Virus record (IMG/VR): IMGVR_UViG_2531839252_000006 | Source of the DNA: a virus | Lineage: Duplodnaviria; Heunggongvirae; Uroviricota; Caudoviricetes | DNA: 39,466 bases | Reading direction: 5' to 3' (one strand) | Shown here: piece after piece, positions 867 through 33,080 of the stretch | Layout: every line of letters starts with the position of its first letter | Numbering within the stretch: the stretch's first letter is position 1 | Notes under the pieces: model-generated | Seen by the model: only the letters and a program-made list of their open reading frames with translations | Databases searched by the model: none | Told to the model about the DNA's origin: nothing | Translations under genes and position numbers: made by a program

Positions 867-3599
867 TTAATTTGCAAGCTTATTTTCCAGTTCTTCAATC
901 CTCTTTATAATATTTTTCTGACGTATACCTAATGCAGCAATCATTAGATACTGTAATTCATCATTTCTGAATGCATAGCGTTCTCCTGCTTCATGCGTAA
1001 TAGTTATAGCCTCACGAACAAGGTTACCTTCATCATCATAAACAGCTGGATCTGTATCTGTATATGCATCCCATCTGTCATAGCAGATCGCTCCGTATTT
1101 AAATGGATCAAGTCCATTCTCTCTGAATATTTCCATTGCCCGTTGCACCGTAAGTCCGGCATGAAGTCTGGCATCAGCTCCCTTATTTTTTACACTATCA
1201 AGCCATTGATAAAAACCAATTTCATCAACAAGAGCTAACCCAACCGCCTGCTCTTTATCGGAAAGAGTTCTGACTTCCGTTTTCTCTGTTGCATCAGATG
1301 TATTTATAGTTGCAGTCCCTGCGTAGACCTGAGAAAAGCGGTTAACGGACCTTCCAAGTGATACCTGGTTATCAGTTGTTGGCCTTAATGTCGTCGTCGC
1401 CCATGTCGATGTAGTATCTTTAGTCGCAGAAAATACTGTTACATTCCCCTGCTTAAGTCTGACGACACCTCCATCTGTAGAGGCAAGTATCAACTCACCA
1501 GCCGCAGATGGACAATCAGCAGCATGGATATCAATATAAGCACCACCCGCAGTATTCCCATCTTTAGAACGGAACTGCATACCTCGAAAGTTTGAGTCGA
1601 ATACTGCTTTCGTACTTACCCATGAATTATTGTCATGTCCGTAATCTGTATCAAACAGGTTAAGGTTATTTCCATAATTCAACTCGAGGGATTTGGTATA
1701 CTCTCCAATGGCTTCGTCAAATATCGCAATAGTAAATGAACCGTGCTCACGGTTAAAGGCGATATCAGTTCCAGCATAATATTGATGCGCGGTTCCGGTA
1801 TACGGATCGGATTCTGCACCATGCACTGGATGGTTGCCAAGAATATCAGACAGGTTTGCTATTCCAAACAGATGCTTATTTCTGCGAGTATAATCACCTG
1901 ATTTATATGTTGCGCCTGAATCCCATTCACCACTTGTCGCTGCAAGCGATGTTTTTAACCAATAAGACCTGTTTGTCGGAAGATTTCCCTTGTTATCACC
2001 AGTAACAATACTTACCCAATTTTTACCACGATGGCTTACAACATCCCCTGCGCTTTTCCATACATCCATAGCACCACAGACAAGTTCATCACCTCTTATT
2101 GCCAGCCCTTCAGGCTCAAAGCTAACCGGAACTCCGATTTTAGAGTCAGAACCATTTAACTGAGTCTCTGTATAAAGTGATGCGGCAAGTGATACAGGAA
2201 ATGAACGTATTAGCGTACCACCCATATCATAAATCTGTACTGTCCTTACGCATCTTGCAGGAACGCCACCCCAAATTGTGTAAATATATCTGCTATCTGA
2301 TGTAATACCCTGAAGTGTTGCACCATACTGACCTTTACCACGGACAAGTGGAACAGGACCATTAATCGGTCTAACTTTCATTGGGTTAGAAGAAGATTCC
2401 ACTTCTTTGCGATCATATACGTATAAAAAGCGGCCAGTCCCAGCGTTTGATGTCGCAATTAATATGACATATCGCCCATCATTAGATACACAAATACTTG
2501 CCCGCTGCGCAAGGTTAATCAGATTATTATCACCCGGCTCACCAAATACTCGGTAATGAGTTATATCTTCAGCAGATGTTGATGCCCCTTTCCATTTTGT
2601 CTTTGAATACCCCTTCCCTCCTAGAGAGGAACCAGTCTCAGCAATTGTTGTTGTAAACAGATATAGTTCACCGTTCTCTATTGTGGCAGAAAGATCTGAA
2701 CCGTGACCAAGAGGCAATGGCTCTGTAAATGTCACAACATAAAGAGTTGAACCATCGCTTGTATAGTGCCACTCACTGATCCTTGTGAGGGTGTCCGTTC
2801 CCCAGTTAGAACCTCCAACCTGTTGAGTGATAAAAACCTTCTCAATACCTTCATGCCTTACACAAGCTATTCCCTGCAATGCATTTTGTGCATTCGCATA
2901 TATAGTTGGCGCATTGATATCATCACCAAAATTCAGGGTCGCAAGTTTTCTTTGTCCAATGGAGAAACTTTGCATCGGCGGATTAACAGAAATGCGAACA
3001 CCATTACTGATTAGAACACCATCACCGGAGAAGCGTGAAATATCTATTTTCGATGCATCAACTATAAACTCACCAGAAGGCACATGAACCAAACCACTAT
3101 TTCCTGCGCTAGATGCGGCGTCAAGAAAAGCCTGTGTTGAATCTCTATTCGCAGAGTCATCCGCCCCCCACCCGCGAACGTCTTTATCATCCCGCCATCG
3201 TGCAATCTGTAATTCAGGGTATTTTTTAGCACCATCAGGATCTTCTAATTGCTGCCGTAACTGATCCGGGTCATACTTCAGCACATTCGGAAAATAGAAC
3301 TGCTGCGTACCATAAGCATCGTACACAGCCATAGAGTGTCCTTTCACAGTAACGAATTTGGCAATCTGTCCGTTATATACAGGATATCCAGCAGCATTGA
3401 TAACGATTGGTTGCGAAACAGGAACGTGAGAACCTTCTTCATTCTCTACATAAACCTGAATCTGGTTTTCAGGATTTACAGGGTCAGTGTCAATTTTACC
3501 GATATAAATTTTGCCATTAGCTACGGCTTTAAAAGAACGAGCCATAGTGAAGAGTTGCGAAGGCATCCCAATTACAACATTTGGAGTTATATCAGGCAT
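867..3599 (-). CDS. Tailspike protein: P22 gp9-type head-binding N-terminal domain joined to a different receptor-binding domain and a C-terminal intramolecular-chaperone-like region; candidate endosialidase.
   Basis: N-terminal about 110 aa ([59 protein letters not shown] ... NVLKYDPDQ) match the remembered P22/Sf6/HK620 tailspike head-binding domain. Asp-box-like motifs ([16 protein letters not shown]) sit in the middle. The C-terminus ([10 protein letters not shown] ... [13 protein letters not shown]) resembles peptidase S74 chaperone domains. The long ORF extends to 3752, but the start was chosen at the ATG at 3599 with AGGA 8 nt upstream; ATG 3608 is an alternative. Confidence 0.8.
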
Positions 3600-3978: not shown

Positions 3979-4881
3979 TCAGTAGTTATGTACTGAAGGA
4001 GGCAATTCTTTATTCTTAAGTCTCATCCATGCGGAAAGATTCGTTGGTCCGTCTGGCTCATTGATATCAACATCTCGTGTGTGATTGATTAAAACGTCTC
4101 TCGCCATTCCGATAACATACGAGAATTCATGACCGTAGTCGTAGCATCTGCCGGAATAGTTCGATTGAATTTGTTTTAGCGCCGGATACAGTTCGCGGAA
4201 TAATGCCTGTGAACGGTTGGCATAATCCCATAACCATACAAGGCTGTTTGCTTCTTTTGCAGAAAGCTCGTTTGCTTTCTTCTCTTGTTTGCCAATAAAC
4301 TCGCCTTCAAGCACTACCCTGTGGATGTACTCTACTGCTTGCGGTATCTGAGATGCATCAAGCTCTTCAATACTTTCCACGTTGAAACGCTGATGAATCA
4401 TTGCATAAGCTTCTGGGTACATTAGATGCTTTTTGCTGACTAGCATATTTACAGCATCACGAAGCGGAGTCCTGTCATCAACAGATGTTTTCTTACGTGC
4501 ATTTTCTTCCTTTCCCTTCGTCCAGTAGTCATGCAGCACGCTAAAGCATTCCTCCTGGTACTGAATCAGTTTATCACGGATGTCAGCACGAACTTTCTCA
4601 GGGTTGATGCTGAACAGCCATCCATTTAACTTCTTCAAAGGAAGGCAGAGTAGCTTACGAAGCTTCCCATCAGCGGCAACCATGTCCATATGAACACAGT
4701 TGAATTTGCTAATCTGCTTCATGAGTTTTGTTTGCTGCGTTGACCAGCTCATTCCAAGGTTTTCAACGATTGGCTTCATCGCAACATATGCAACTCCGGC
4801 AGCCATGGCGGTGATAATTTGCTGACCGTTGAATGGTACGTAAGAGGTGTTCACTGCTTCTAAAATTGCTATACTATTCAT
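3979..4881 (-). CDS. ant: Antirepressor Ant (immI region), 300 aa.
   Basis: Translation from [21 protein letters not shown] gives 300 aa, the length of P22 Ant, with a GGAG 10 nt upstream. Its position downstream of arc matches P22 immI. Confidence 0.85.
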
Positions 4882-29156: not shown

Positions 29157-29974
29157 GCAATTCCCCTGTCTGCAAACTTCCCTTCACGAACTCCCGTTAA
29201 CGAATCTTCTCTCAGCAGGTAATCAAAATCAGCCGTCCAGCCCGTGTCGTTGTCTCCGAAGTAAAACGGCTTGGCCTGATGCACAAACGCCCTGACATAC
29301 GCCCTGAAACCGTCCACGTTTGGCGTTTTCAGTTGCGGGATGATTTTTTTCAGGCGGCGTTTGCGTTTCTCGTTGACCGCAACAGCGTGTGGAAGTCTGT
29401 CACCGACTTCGGTGTTGTAGGCGTTCAGGAAGGATTCGTAGTCGATTCGTTCTGCCTTGCGACGTTCAGGTTTAACCTGCCCATCGCCGCCCCCGTTAGG
29501 GGGTAAGGGGGTATTTGTATTTATTGTCTTTTGTATATTGTCTTTTGTGTTTAGCTGACTTGGCTTATACCCATTAGCTGACTTGGCTAATGTTTTATTA
29601 GCTGTTTTAGCTAATGTTAAGCTGTCCTGGCTAATCCACTGCGAAACCACCTTGTTCACTCCGATTTTCACGCCATCAGCAATGAGGAATTTACGCTCAA
29701 TAAGCTGGCGCTTGGCAGCGCAAACATGAGTGTGATGAATACCTGTCATGGCTGCTATCTGCGTGTTTGTGAGTCGATCCATCGGCTTATTGAATCCGTA
29801 TGTCTTGCGCATGATAGCGAGCATCACCTTCAACTGCCGGACGGTTAAATCAGCCATCAGCAGACTGTCGGTAATCTCGTTAGCAACGCGCATGAAACCA
29901 TCTTCGGTATCTGCCACGCGATGCTCCACGACCTCAAGTTGAGGCCTGTAATCAGCTAACTTAACGACGCCCAT
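29153..29974 (-). CDS. Replication initiator, lambda O / P22 gene 18 family, 273 aa, containing the origin.
   Basis: Size and position upstream of the helicase; iterons and an AT-rich tract lie inside the coding sequence. Confidence 0.8.
29511..29640. repeat. Origin of replication: iterons (tagctgacttggct x2 plus degenerate copies) next to an AT-rich tract with attgtcttttgt x2, embedded in the O-like gene.
   Basis: Direct repeats seen at 29551-29636 and the AT-rich repeat at 29511-29550; same arrangement as lambda ori within O. Confidence 0.65.
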
Positions 29975-30122
29975 GTTTCACTCCTGCTTTGGCTAGTCTG
30001 TAAACACCAACAAGGCGCTCTGCGAACGCCCTGTTATTTGCTGCGGCTACCACTAATCCCTCAGGTGAATCAGGGTGTCGAATCTCTTCTTTTTCCTGGT
30101 ATTTCTTACGACGTTTTGTCAT
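29961..30122 (-). CDS. Small basic hypothetical protein, 53 aa, between cII and O.
   Basis: AGGAG 6 nt upstream of the ATG at 30122. Confidence 0.4.
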   Translation of the reverse strand: MTKRRKKYQEKEEIRHPDSPEGLVVAAANNRAFAERLVGVYRLAKAGVKHGRR

Positions 30123-30156
30123 AATTACTCCTGTGGATTGATCCAGTCTTTCTACA

Positions 30157-30435
30157 TCAGGCCTCAAAACTGTTGCAGCAGTCTTGAGGCTTTTCTTTTG
30201 TCAGCACCTTGGCTACTTTCTTTGCCAGTTCCGCCAATTCCTCGTCTTCAACACCCCACTCCAGCACAGCCAGAAGCATGGCCATCTTTGGGATAAAGCT
30301 GTCTTTCCATCGCGAAATTTGCGATTCATTAATCCCTAACGCGTCGGCAACCTTTCGCTGACCACGTACAGCAATTCGATTTAGGATGTTGCTTGTAATT
30401 GCATTCGCTTTCTTGCGAGTACTTGTAAGTTGCAT
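30157..30435 (-). CDS. cII: CII-type transcriptional activator (P22 c1 equivalent), 92 aa.
   Basis: GINESQISRWK and MLLAVLEWGV motifs match the lambda CII / P22 C1 helix-turn-helix region. Confidence 0.8.
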   Translation of the reverse strand: MQLTSTRKKANAITSNILNRIAVRGQRKVADALGINESQISRWKDSFIPKMAMLLAVLEWGVEDEELAELAKKVAKVLTKEKPQDCCNSFEA

Positions 30436-30493
30436 ATGTAAGTATTTCCTTAACAAATAAGAAGTTATACGCACCAACTGATGCGCGTTGTAT

Positions 30494-30537
30494 TCCCGCA
30501 TTTCGGCGGGAATGAGGACCATGACTGTTAAAGAGCA
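30494..30537 (-). promoter_or_regulatory. nutR: boxA (TGCTCTTTAACAG) followed by the boxB hairpin (tcccgc-cgaaat-gcggga) on the minus strand.
   Basis: Seen directly; the boxA matches the rrn/lambda boxA consensus and the same boxB sequence recurs at nutL. Confidence 0.55.
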
Positions 30538-30543
30538 ATTTGC

Positions 30544-30729
30544 TTATGCCGCTTTGCGATAAGCACTTTCTTGATACTTCAGGGCGCCAGCTGTAACGAC
30601 TTCCAGTCGATAGGCGTCTTTCTCTGGGATGACTTCCTTCCACTGAGAGACTGCTGCATCGCTAATGCCTAACGCTTTAGCTACCGCACGCTGGGTTCCG
30701 AAGTGGTCGATAACATCTTTCTTGTACAT
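30544..30729 (-). CDS. cro: Cro repressor, 61 aa.
   Basis: MYKKDVIDHFGTQRAVAKALGISDAAVSQWKEVIPEKDAYRLEVVTAGALKYQESAYRKAA matches remembered P22 Cro. Confidence 0.9.
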   Translation of the reverse strand: MYKKDVIDHFGTQRAVAKALGISDAAVSQWKEVIPEKDAYRLEVVTAGALKYQESAYRKAA

Positions 30730-30743
30730 AGACTCGCTCCGAA

Positions 30744-30808
30744 ATTAAAGAACACTTAAATTATCTATCAAAGGAATCTTAAGTCAAGTTTATTTAAGAT
30801 GTCTTAAC
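30744..30808. promoter_or_regulatory. OR operator region with PR/PRM: 18-bp operator attaaagaacacttaaat (30744-30761) plus two more ATTTAAG/CTTAA-type half-site pairs.
   Basis: Palindromic operators of the P22 type seen between divergent cro and c2. Confidence 0.7.
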
Positions 30809-30809
30809 T

Positions 30810-31460
30810 ATGAATACACAACTGATGGGTGAGCGTATTCGCGCTCGCAGAAAAGAACTCAAGATTAGGCAGGCTGCCCTTGGCAAGATGGTTGGCGTGT
30901 CTAATGTTGCTATTTCCCAATGGGAGCGTTCTGAAACTGAGCCCAATGGCGAAAACCTATTGGCCTTAGCCAAGGCTTTGCAGTGCTCCCCTGATTACTT
31001 GTTGAAAGGAGAAGATAGTCTTTCAAACATTGCCTATCACAGCAGGCATGATCCAAGAGGTTCGTATCCTCTAATTAGTTGGGTAAGCGCAGGATGTTGG
31101 ATGGAAGCTGTAGAGCCATATCATAAGCGTGCAATAGATAACTGGTACGATACAACCGTAGATTGTTCAGAAGATTCGTTTTGGCTGGACGTAAAGGGTG
31201 ATTCGATGACGGCTCCAGCCGGTCTTAGCATCCCGGAAGGGATGATAATACTAGTCGATCCTGAAGTAGAACCTCGTAATGGGAAGCTGGTAGTGGCAAA
31301 GCTCGAAGGAGAAAACGAGGCAACTTTCAAGAAGTTAGTTATTGATGCTGGCAGAAGGTTTCTAAAACCACTTAACCCACAATATCCGATGATTGAGATC
31401 AACGGGAACTGCAAAATCATCGGTGTAGTTGTCGATGCAAAAATAGCAAACCTTCCATAA
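30810..31460 (+). CDS. c2: Prophage repressor C2 (CI-type, LexA-like S24 autopeptidase fold), 216 aa.
   Basis: Translation MNTQLMGERIRARRKELKIRQAALGKMVGVSNVAISQWERSE ... GDSM ... matches remembered P22 C2; same length. Confidence 0.9.
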   Translation: MNTQLMGERIRARRKELKIRQAALGKMVGVSNVAISQWERSETEPNGENLLALAKALQCSPDYLLKGEDSLSNIAYHSRHDPRGSYPLISWVSAGCWMEAVEPYHKRAIDNWYDTTVDCSEDSFWLDVKGDSMTAPAGLSIPEGMIILVDPEVEPRNGKLVVAKLEGENEATFKKLVIDAGRRFLKPLNPQYPMIEINGNCKIIGVVVDAKIANLP

Positions 31461-31482
31461 GGGGCATTCGCCCCTTTTTTCT
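31461..31482 (+). terminator. Rho-independent terminator directly after c2.
   Basis: ggggc-attc-gcccc followed by tttttt. Confidence 0.7.
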
Positions 31483-31499
31483 TTCCTTTAAAAATCAAA

Positions 31500-31600
31500 G
31501 CAAAACTTAAACTTCGCAATAAAATTTAAGTTTTCTTCAAAAACACTCTCGACCACCAATTAAAGAAATCTTAAATTTAAGTCATCAGCAGGACGCTGGT
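31500..31600. promoter_or_regulatory. OL/PL region: 18-bp operator attaaagaaatcttaaat (31559-31576) and further CTTAAA/TTTAAG half-sites.
   Basis: Operator palindromes seen directly; position upstream of nutL and N. Confidence 0.5.
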
Positions 31601-31622
31601 AGCCAAACGGAACAGATTGGCA

Positions 31623-31664
31623 GGCTCTTTAACATTGATGGGATTGTCCCGCCGAAATGCGGGA
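31623..31664 (+). promoter_or_regulatory. nutL: boxA (GCTCTTTAACA) plus the boxB hairpin (tcccgc-cgaaat-gcggga).
   Basis: Seen directly; boxB is identical to the nutR copy. Confidence 0.55.
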
Positions 31665-31771
31665 ACCAAAGAGTAGTTGGCTTTGGGGTGACGTGAAGTG
31701 CAGCTGCACGACGGCAACCGGAAGATAAGCACCCGGCGCGTCACCGCCAAAGTCAATCATCGGAGGTCAAC

Positions 31772-32044
31772 ATGACAGTAGTCATTACATATCTGGCTGA
31801 CGATAACGCCAGAAATAGCCGCAGAGCACGCAGACAGGCTCAACGTGAACAGGCAATGCAAGAGCAGCGACTGGCGCGAAAGATTGCGCTAAAGCTCTCT
31901 GGTTGCGTCAGAGCAGATAAAGCAGCATCACTCGGAAGCCTTCGCTGTAAGGAAGAAGATGAACGCAGTGGAAGTATTTGCCTGCCAAACGTAGCTCTTT
32001 ACGCGGCAGGCTACAGGAAATCAAAACAACTGACGGCGAGGTAA
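31772..32044 (+). CDS. N: N-type transcription antiterminator, 90 aa.
   Basis: Arg-rich N-terminal motif (NARNSRRARRQAQREQ) and first gene downstream of PL/nutL; GGAGG 5 nt upstream. Confidence 0.7.
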   Translation: MTVVITYLADDNARNSRRARRQAQREQAMQEQRLARKIALKLSGCVRADKAASLGSLRCKEEDERSGSICLPNVALYAAGYRKSKQLTAR

Positions 32045-32046
32045 TT

Positions 32047-32340
32047 ATGGATATTTCATGTATTGAACAATTACTAATTGAGAAAACGAAAGAAATGCTT
32101 GATGTATTGGACATAAAAATATCTGAGTTAAAAGATACACCCGCGACACAACTTATTCTCGAACGTAGTCGAAATAAATTCTTAGAGTTAAACCCTGACG
32201 TTCAAAATATAGCATCTAAACTGCTGGCTACATTGATTGAGAGAAATGCATTGTTATCGATGTCATCAGATGAACGAAAAAAACTGGCGAACGAAGATGC
32301 TGCAACCATCCGCCAGGCATTCGAAATTTTGTTTTCTTAA
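32047..32340 (+). CDS. Hypothetical protein, 97 aa, in an AT-rich segment after N.
   Basis: GAGG 6 nt upstream of the ATG at 32047; the longer ORF-track start would overlap N. Confidence 0.5.
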   Translation: MDISCIEQLLIEKTKEMLDVLDIKISELKDTPATQLILERSRNKFLELNPDVQNIASKLLATLIERNALLSMSSDERKKLANEDAATIRQAFEILFS

Positions 32341-32505
32341 TTACTTACTGTTTATTCTGATAATCTCATCAAGAATTTTTTCATAAACAACTGTGATTGG
32401 CTTTCCGTCAATGCCAGGGGCAAGATTACCGGCTCTGATAAGCTCAACAATAATCTGTTGAGCGGCTTCGTGTGGGTTGGTTTTAGGATTAACAATATCT
32501 GTCAT
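32341..32505 (-). CDS. Hypothetical small protein, 54 aa, convergent with the preceding gene.
   Basis: GAAGGG upstream of the ATG at 32505; stop abuts the stop of the plus-strand 97-aa gene. Confidence 0.4.
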   Translation of the reverse strand: MTDIVNPKTNPHEAAQQIIVELIRAGNLAPGIDGKPITVVYEKILDEIIRINSK

Positions 32506-32715
32506 AACAAAGCCCTTCTTTTGACTGTGGAAACAACAGTCTACCCATTTCCTTTGACTGTGGAAAGTGAAGGAACCACCGAGCCTGATGTGGTTAAAAG
32601 ACAGGCACAATCTTTACTACCGCAATCCACTATTTAAGGTGATATATGGAAGAAGAATTTGAAGAGTTCGAAGAGCATCCTCAGGATGTGATGGAACAAT
32701 ACCAGGACTATCCGT

Positions 32716-32916
32716 ATGACTACGACTATTGATAAAAATCAATGGTGTGGACAATTCAAGCGATGCAATGGATGCAAGCTGCAATCGGAATGCATGGTTA
32801 AGCCTGAAGAAATGTTTCCTGTAATGGAAGATGGGAAATATGTCGATAAATGGGCAATACGAACGACGGCAATGATTGCCAGAGAACTTGGTAAACAGAA
32901 TAACAAGGCTGCCTGA
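32716..32916 (+). CDS. ral: Ral-like restriction-alleviation protein, 66 aa.
   Basis: Length and sequence (MTTTIDKNQWCGQFKRCNGCKLQSECMVKPEEMF ...) resemble lambda Ral as remembered; position after N. Confidence 0.6.
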   Translation: MTTTIDKNQWCGQFKRCNGCKLQSECMVKPEEMFPVMEDGKYVDKWAIRTTAMIARELGKQNNKAA

Positions 32917-33052
32917 TGGTGGCCTTTATTTTTGGCATAAACAACAGAATAAACACTGCACTGTGTATTCATTCCAACGAGTGAATACACGGAGCAATGT
33001 CGCTCGTAACTAAACAGGAGCCGACTTGTTCTGATTGTTGGAAATCTTCTTT

Positions 33053-33080
33053 GCCCTCCAATGTGAGGGCGATTTTTTAT
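33053..33080 (+). terminator. Rho-independent terminator in the PL operon (tL-like).
   Basis: gccctc-caatgt-gagggc followed by gattttttat. Confidence 0.55.

Follow-up and report, generated by a model that had tools for sequence, protein, structure and literature searches.

The virus sequence analysed here, a stretch of 39,466 nucleotides (nt) from IMG/VR record IMGVR_UViG_2531839252_000006 which we refer to in its entirety as the window, carries the same boxA-boxB pair on either side of its immunity region, and it is very probable that these pairs are the rightward and leftward N-utilization sites (nutR and nutL) of a P22-like (Lederbergvirus) phage of E. coli that combines imm21-type immunity with the N/nut specificity of phage HK620. 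The structural genes are P22-like, i.e. those of a Lederbergvirus, while the immunity region is ~87% identical to that of phage 21 (phi21) and HK629, and ~93% identical to that of CUS-3, JEP4, N7 and IME10. The nut sites as such are real, ordinary and already known, having been catalogued in HK620. What the comparison with related phages brings out is an apparent natural exchange, within closely similar DNA, of the arginine-rich motif (ARM) of the antiterminator N together with both boxB hairpins.

The 18-nt hairpin sequence TCCCGCCGAAATGCGGGA is present in the window in two exact copies, one at 30494-30511 on the minus strand after cro and one at 31647-31664 on the plus strand before N. This is the arrangement that an earlier note on this DNA had described, and the gene calls on which it depended are backed by Pfam. 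Allowing up to two mismatches adds no further copy, and the sequence was absent from 100 shuffles (expected 0). Again as had been stated, a boxA precedes each hairpin; it is an exact GCTCTTTAACA, at a spacing of 12-14 nt, and lies at 30526-30536 on the minus strand, 8 nt past the cro stop codon, and at 31624-31634 on the plus strand, ~40 nt into the pL transcript. Together with the T that precedes it, this boxA reads TGCTCTTTAACA, which we take to be the rrn-type boxA consensus. Given that ~1 chance match of the 11-mer is expected in the window at one mismatch, boxA is not significant alone; the non-random part is that boxA, a spacer of 12 or 14 nt and boxB recur together, in the same sense on each transcribed strand. 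Conservation between the left and right sites is restricted to boxA and boxB, and the spacers differ. RNA folding, which had been proposed as a check, places the boxB hairpin in both the minimum free energy and the centroid folds, with a core stem TCCCGC/GCGGGA of 6 bp and a 6-nt loop, CGAAAU; at nutL the stem consists of these 6 bp, and at nutR it extends to 8 bp (ATTCCCGC/GCGGGAAT, 30492-30513).

The gene downstream of nutL (31772-32044, plus strand) encodes an N antiterminator of 90 residues, which matches Pfam PF25694 N_peptide (E = 6.9e-15; 55.8 bits against a cut-off of 27.9) and aligns with the N proteins of lambda, P22 and phi21. It was anticipated that this protein has an Arg-rich motif of its own, and the motif NSRRARRQAQREQ is indeed found at residues 15-27; the codons of the ARM core (31808-31852, plus strand; residues 13-27, ARNSRRARRQAQREQ) fall in register with the ARMs of lambda, P22 and phi21 N. 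Beyond this motif the protein is a mosaic, phage-21-like over residues 34-60 and P22-like over residues 61-90. The window therefore holds what is expected of a lambdoid N/nut system, namely an N-family protein with an N-terminal ARM, two nut sites on the transcribed strands (between pL and N, and between cro and cII), a boxA 5' of a boxB hairpin with a short purine-rich loop, and a boxB that co-varies with the ARM of N across phages. The presence of UCCCGC-CGAAAU-GCGGGA at both sites, together with the matching ARM, places it in the HK620-type class.

The co-variation of ARM and boxB was examined in 400 IMG/VR loci, fetched with N queries of the HK620, phi21, mEpX2, P22 and lambda types, and in reference phages; removal of duplicates left 302 unique loci. 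At nutL, 104 loci pair an HK620-type ARM with a C-GAAA-U boxB, 59 are phi21-type in both respects, 59 are P22-type and 62 are lambda-type, with no locus off the diagonal. The ARM class likewise predicts the boxB class at nutR, with no true exception. Two cases in which an HK620-type ARM seemed to accompany a P22-type nutR were rejected, as the supposed sites were chance loose 9-mers inside coding sequence and had no boxA, and the HK620-type loci which seemed to lack a boxB proved to have truncated flanks, immunity regions longer than the fetched DNA, or the orphan second N of mEp213. This last phage (NC_019720) has a lambda-type N in the canonical position (locus 3016-3348) with lambda-type nutL and nutR, and its HK620-type second N (locus 4501-4773) lies ~1.5 kb downstream with an inserted segment, preceded by a degenerate boxB, GCCCTC-CGAAAT-GCGGGA, without a boxA. 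Elsewhere the HK620-type ARM keeps its own boxB on other N bodies, such as one with a P22-like middle (mEpX2) or a lambda/21-like C-terminus (CUS-3), and the nutL boxB (TCCCGC-CGAAAT-GCGGGA) is invariant in the 104 unique HK620-type loci. The HK620-type boxB is also kept across several immunity cassettes, with boxB-R lying 1217-2261 nt and boxB-L 78-577 nt upstream of N. As judged from these sequences, the ARM (approximately residues 1-33) and both boxB hairpins are passed on together as one specificity unit, independent of the remainder of N and of the immunity cassette.

The divergence between the window and its imm21 relatives, followed in a 15-nt sliding comparison with HK629, is concentrated in the same three places. 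The two boxA elements are 100% identical to those of HK629 and phage 21, and boxA of nutR also to that of CUS-3 and JEP4; cro is 94% and cI 91% identical, and N is 96% identical over residues 34-60 (96-98% against HK629 and phage 21) and 92% identical over residues 61-90, whereas the codons of residues 1-33 are only 43% identical, against 92-96% for the remaining N. The boxB-R hairpin is 33% identical to that of HK629 and phage 21 in surroundings which are 90-100% identical, and boxB-L is 39% identical in a leader that is otherwise conserved; relative to these two phages, strong divergence is confined to the two hairpins, with some adjoining sequence, and to the ARM codons. Identity to phage 21/HK629 is otherwise 84-100% across the immunity region, boxA, the leader and N residues 34-60. 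In the N proteins of the window and phage 21, residues 34-60 are identical and residues 1-33, including the ARM, are unrelated. The phage 21 record annotates boxA-R, nutR, pL, boxA-L and nutL at places homologous to those in the window, and its boxB elements read CUCAAC-CUAACC-GUUGAG at nutL and UCACCU-CUAACC-GGGUGA at nutR, with boxA and the flanks conserved.

This pattern has the appearance of a natural specificity swap, in which the tip of N and both boxB hairpins have been replaced in a near-identical region. We infer that, most likely, the immunity cassette was exchanged through recombination in the conserved flanks that contain boxA; a coordinated replacement of three patches is the less likely history. 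Given that cro (94%) and cI (91%) match those of phage 21, the phage probably has imm21 immunity with an N/nut specificity other than that of phage 21. In classical imm21 hybrids, the immunity cassette comes together with the N specificity; the window indicates that the two are separable. The proposal of the earlier note that N and boxB form a distinct pair is thus supported at the level of sequence, by these islands of divergence and by the co-occurrence across the 302 loci, and it is from their co-segregation that a distinct recognition is suggested.

As regards novelty, the comparison with catalogued nut sites leads to a less favorable outcome. The record of HK620 (NC_002730) annotates a "nutL; putative N-utilization leftward" and a "nutR; putative N-utilization rightward" in which boxA, spacer and boxB are the same as in the window at both sites, and HK620 N is 92% identical to the N of the window. 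Because the sites are identical and the N proteins so similar, the claim to novelty essentially lapses, and what stands is the difference from lambda, P22 and phi21. This annotation dates from 2001, the year in which the HK620 genome was reportedly described by Clark et al. (J Mol Biol). The layout is also shared, with cro, nutR, tR1 (a candidate in the window) and cII on one side and pL, nutL and N on the other; the immunity cassette differs, HK620 having its own cI and cro and an extra gene where the window is imm21-like. The two ARMs differ at one residue (R16 in HK620, S16 in the window), and the HK620-type consensus is A[RK]N[RS]RRARRQAQREQ. Codon 16 of the window N (31817-31819) specifies Ser where nearly all HK620-type N proteins have Arg (ARNSRR vs ARNRRR); among more than 100 unique sequences, Ser16 occurs in the window and in one IMG/VR contig only, at a position that aligns with Arg6 of lambda N.

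The earlier note had stated that the boxB matches neither lambda nor P22; the actual records confirm it, and show that the phi21 boxB differs too. The geometry of the phi21 boxB resembles that of the window, with a stem of 6-7 bp and a 6-nt, pyrimidine-flanked loop, but this loop of equal length reads CUAACC instead of CGAAAU, the stems are different, and the ARM is GTAKSRYKARRAELIAERR as compared with DNARNSRRARRQAQREQ in the window. The lambda boxB, which has a 5-bp stem (GCCCU/AGGGC), a U-A closing pair and a GAARA pentaloop, agrees with that of the window at 10-11 of 18-19 aligned positions and differs in stem and loop length; moreover, the lambda boxA is CGCTCTTA, whereas that of the window is rrn-type, and W18 of lambda N aligns with Ala in the window N. 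Shared with lambda are the Arg spacing of the ARM (A-x-x-R-R-R-x-R-R), a purine-rich loop beginning with GAA, a second hairpin and a GGGGUG (boxC-like) tract past the nutL boxB and, presumably, the overall mechanism.

The likeness to P22 is closer. The P22 boxA is of the GCTCTTTA type, as in the window, and the C-terminus of P22 N (LPxVALYAAGxRKSKQxTAR) is common to the window N; the P22 ARM, GNAKTRRHERRRKLAIERD, is unlike that of the window. The P22 boxB elements are GCGCU-GACAA-AGCGC at nutL and CCGC-CGACAAC-GCGG at nutR, and the window loop, CGAAAU, is without their GACAA. When the nutR cores are aligned (CCGC-C-GACAA-C-GCGG in P22, CCGC-C-GAAA-U-GCGG in the window), 13 of 15 positions are identical, with a 1-nt deletion and one substitution accounting for the difference. 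In the published N-boxB complex of P22, the GACAA pentaloop adopts a GNRA-like fold by extruding one of its bases; the window loop already contains the 4-nt GAAA. The simplest reading of the window loop is a GAAA (GNRA) tetraloop with a C.U mismatch beside it, a shortened relative of the P22 nutR loop C-GACAA-C.

With the boxB so near the P22 nutR core, cross-recognition with P22 N is conceivable, and this opens the way to an alternative that we consider unlikely: the nut sites could be genuine without having a separate specificity, such that HK620-type N and the N of P22 or lambda might recognise one another's boxB, the differences amounting to drift within one GNRA-like mode. The GAAA in the loop and the small distance from P22 nutR would fit such drift, as would the arginine spacing A-x-x-R-R-x-x-R-R, which the ARM has in common with lambda and P22. 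The title of Cocozaki et al. (2008) likewise indicates that the boxB requirements of P22 overlap those of lambda. Yet a shared mode of recognition does not readily account for the lack of any class mixing among the 302 loci, which include 59 of P22 type and 62 of lambda type, or for mEpX2, where a P22-like N body with the HK620 ARM is accompanied by the HK620 boxB rather than that of P22. A proposal at the other extreme is that the HK620-type ARM and boxB constitute a fourth, functionally orthogonal class of N peptide and RNA, in which the GAAA (GNRA) tetraloop is pre-formed, closed by a C.U mismatch, and no base is extruded; this we advance tentatively, with somewhat more doubt than conviction.

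Other explanations dispense with N altogether. As GC-rich stem-loops in intergenic leaders, the hairpins could in principle be terminators or generic RNA stability elements, but neither copy is followed by a T-run (AACCAAAG and AAUACAAC are found there instead), our terminator scan did not call them, and they always occur after a boxA and track the ARM class, not the flanking genes; we regard this explanation as extremely improbable. An 18-bp inverted repeat that flanks the immunity region on both sides, as operators do, might alternatively be a DNA-level, operator-like site for a phage or host protein. Against this, the repeat stays constant while the repressor/cro cassette between its copies changes, and it changes when only the ARM of N changes; furthermore, its loop is asymmetric and has the same sense in both transcripts. 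The variation that exists also points to RNA. At the base of the nutR stem, a variant found in 8 loci retains its pairing solely by a U.G wobble, a pair that counts in RNA but has no meaning in duplex DNA; an operator-like site we regard as likewise extremely improbable. The nutR of Pantoea phage PA-1 shows covariation in the lower stem, and HK620-type and phi21-type boxB elements differ in a compensatory manner in aligned stem columns. These signals are modest but consistent.

Several points nevertheless weigh against the assignment of the window sites to a dedicated HK620-type N/nut pair. In the literature that we searched, we found no experimental characterisation of the HK620-type N/boxB pair, nor a paper that prints the HK620-type boxB sequence in a phage context, and the HK620 nut sites are annotated as "putative" only. 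The z-scores of the 66-nt folds (-0.41 and -1.45) are not significant alone, as expected for a short hairpin, and an Rfam search of 29500-33000 in E-value mode returned no nut or boxB family, the matches being chance ones far below gathering scores. The boxB core hardly varies among >100 unique loci of the HK620 type and so offers little within-class covariation, the U.G wobble variant and the PA-1 nutR being the only informative cases. Last, the association of ARM and boxB could in part be linkage, given that nutL lies only ~110-580 nt from the ARM; nutR, unlike nutL, is separated from the ARM by exchangeable immunity cassettes.

By analogy with lambda, P22 and phi21, it is reasonable to postulate how an HK620-type N/nut system would operate in this phage. 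The pR transcript (via cro) and the pL transcript (the N leader) would each present an rrn-type boxA, followed 12-14 nt on by boxB. The N-terminal Arg-rich helix of N (approximately residues 11-30, containing DNARNSRRARRQAQREQ) would bind the loop and upper stem of boxB, NusB and NusE (S10) would bind boxA, and the central and C-terminal parts of N would contact NusA and RNA polymerase. The elongation complex so modified would then read through terminators on both sides. Rightward, the first of these may be a hairpin with a U-rich tail (GCGCAUC-AGUU-GGUGCGU; 30469-30486, minus strand), a few nt past boxB-R and before cII, which is a candidate for tR1. In the HK620 record, the corresponding position is annotated as tR1; the window differs from CUS-3 and HK620 at 3 stem positions, all of which still pair (as wobbles or as a new pair), and equivalent hairpins are present in phi21, P22 and PA-1. 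Leftward, a consensus scan finds two terminator-like hairpins with T-runs in the pL operon past N (32905-32926 and 33051-33072, plus strand), which are candidate tL terminators for N to read through.

With regard to the genes around them, both nut sites are canonically placed, after cro and before N. Just before nutR, and transcribed from pR, is cro (30544-30729, minus strand; Pfam P22_Cro, 96 bits), and between the two nut sites lies a cI/C2-type, LexA-like repressor gene (30810-31460, plus strand; Pfam HTH_3 and Peptidase_S24) which is imm21-like, the N-terminal, DNA-binding half being ~100% identical to phage 21 cI at the nucleotide level. The first gene after nutR is cII-like (30157-30435, minus strand; Pfam Phage_CII, 151 bits, profile positions 1-91 of 91 from Met 30435). 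A longer, ATG-initiated open reading frame (ORF) of 121 residues (30157-30522, minus strand) overlaps boxB-R, and the CUS-3 record annotates an equivalent long cII (310-690 of its fetched locus) across the boxB-R counterpart, so that boxB-R might be taken for coding sequence of a long cII. We consider this very improbable: the Phage_CII profile matches end to end from Met 30435, which puts boxB-R in the cro-cII intergenic region, the JEP4, HK620 and phage 21 records annotate a short cII, and it is the upstream extension whose sequence has been swapped, or is not conserved, in phage 21/HK629. The long cII of CUS-3 is probably a mis-annotated start.

A pR-like promoter (TTGACT, 16 nt, GATAAT; 30760-30787, minus strand) matches the consensus at 10 of 12 positions, and its place agrees with the operator and promoter annotations of phage 21 and HK620. 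The consensus promoter scan did not pick up pL; its position (31549-31584, plus strand) is assigned by homology to the annotated pL start of phage 21, with a putative -35 element TCGACC at 31549-31554, a -10 element TTAAAT at 31572-31577 and the +1 near 31584. Within the pL leader, a long-range stem is predicted between nutL and the ribosome-binding site of N (31676-31695 with 31737-31757, plus strand; fold z = -3.1), and 43 unique leaders of HK620 and phi21 type contain multiple compensatory pairs in it (e.g. UA 24/GC 17; UA 24/AU 19; GC 20/CG 17). In lambda, a stem in the N leader that is targeted by RNase III modulates N translation, and the stem at 31676-31757 may play a like role. In CUS-3, ~200 nt are inserted between nutL and N, within an annotated 502-nt "bsq5 boundary sequence" (locus 1629-2130); the nutL boxA lies at ~1796 of this locus and the start of N at 2150. 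Evidently, the N leader can accommodate insertions.

The boxA elements themselves have potential pairing partners. In nutL, CUCUUU of boxA (31626-31631) is complementary to AAAGAG shortly after boxB-L (31668-31673, plus strand). In nutR, boxA (30525-30534, minus strand) is predicted to form a 10-bp pairing with the Shine-Dalgarno region of cII (30447-30456, minus strand; fold z = -3.07); the pairing is the same in HK620, HK140 and mEpX2, which have one leader module in common, but phi21, P22, lambda and PA-1 lack it. As it occurs in this single shared module only, we have set it aside as evidence. The nutR pairing may be due to chance, or may represent a type-specific alternative NUT structure.

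Beyond the phages already mentioned, the HK620-type N/nut pair occurs in HK140 and several Stx phages, and in CUS-3, JEP4, N7, IME10 and mEpX2 as well. Among 5,426 complete E. coli genomes, 1160 contain a match to the segment from nutL to N, and in 352 the match is near-complete. A scan of genome contigs for the exact boxA-to-boxB unit returned one Escherichia genome and two short contigs of metagenome-assembled genomes, a result which says little beyond "Escherichia" because the set holds one genome per species. The two short contigs are labelled Bacillales and Segatella copri, and these are most likely instances of binning contamination. That N proteins with divergent N termini should differ in boxB specificity is a general principle already stated in the paper on the epsilon34 genome (PMC2629481).

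As a discovery, the re-identification of nut sites that are known from the HK620 annotation and common among E. coli prophages matters little. The comparative data are useful, as they provide an unusually clean natural swap of the N ARM together with both boxB hairpins. They also draw attention to a common specificity class which has apparently never been characterised biochemically, and which is a candidate for an additional orthogonal pair beside the RNA-tethering pairs of lambda, P22 and phi21. In lambda, the extruded loop base has been implicated in contact with NusA. If the HK620-type ARM and boxB do form an orthogonal class with a pre-formed tetraloop, they would constitute a new orthogonal peptide-RNA tether, and would serve as a naturally occurring test of the need for the extruded base in antitermination.

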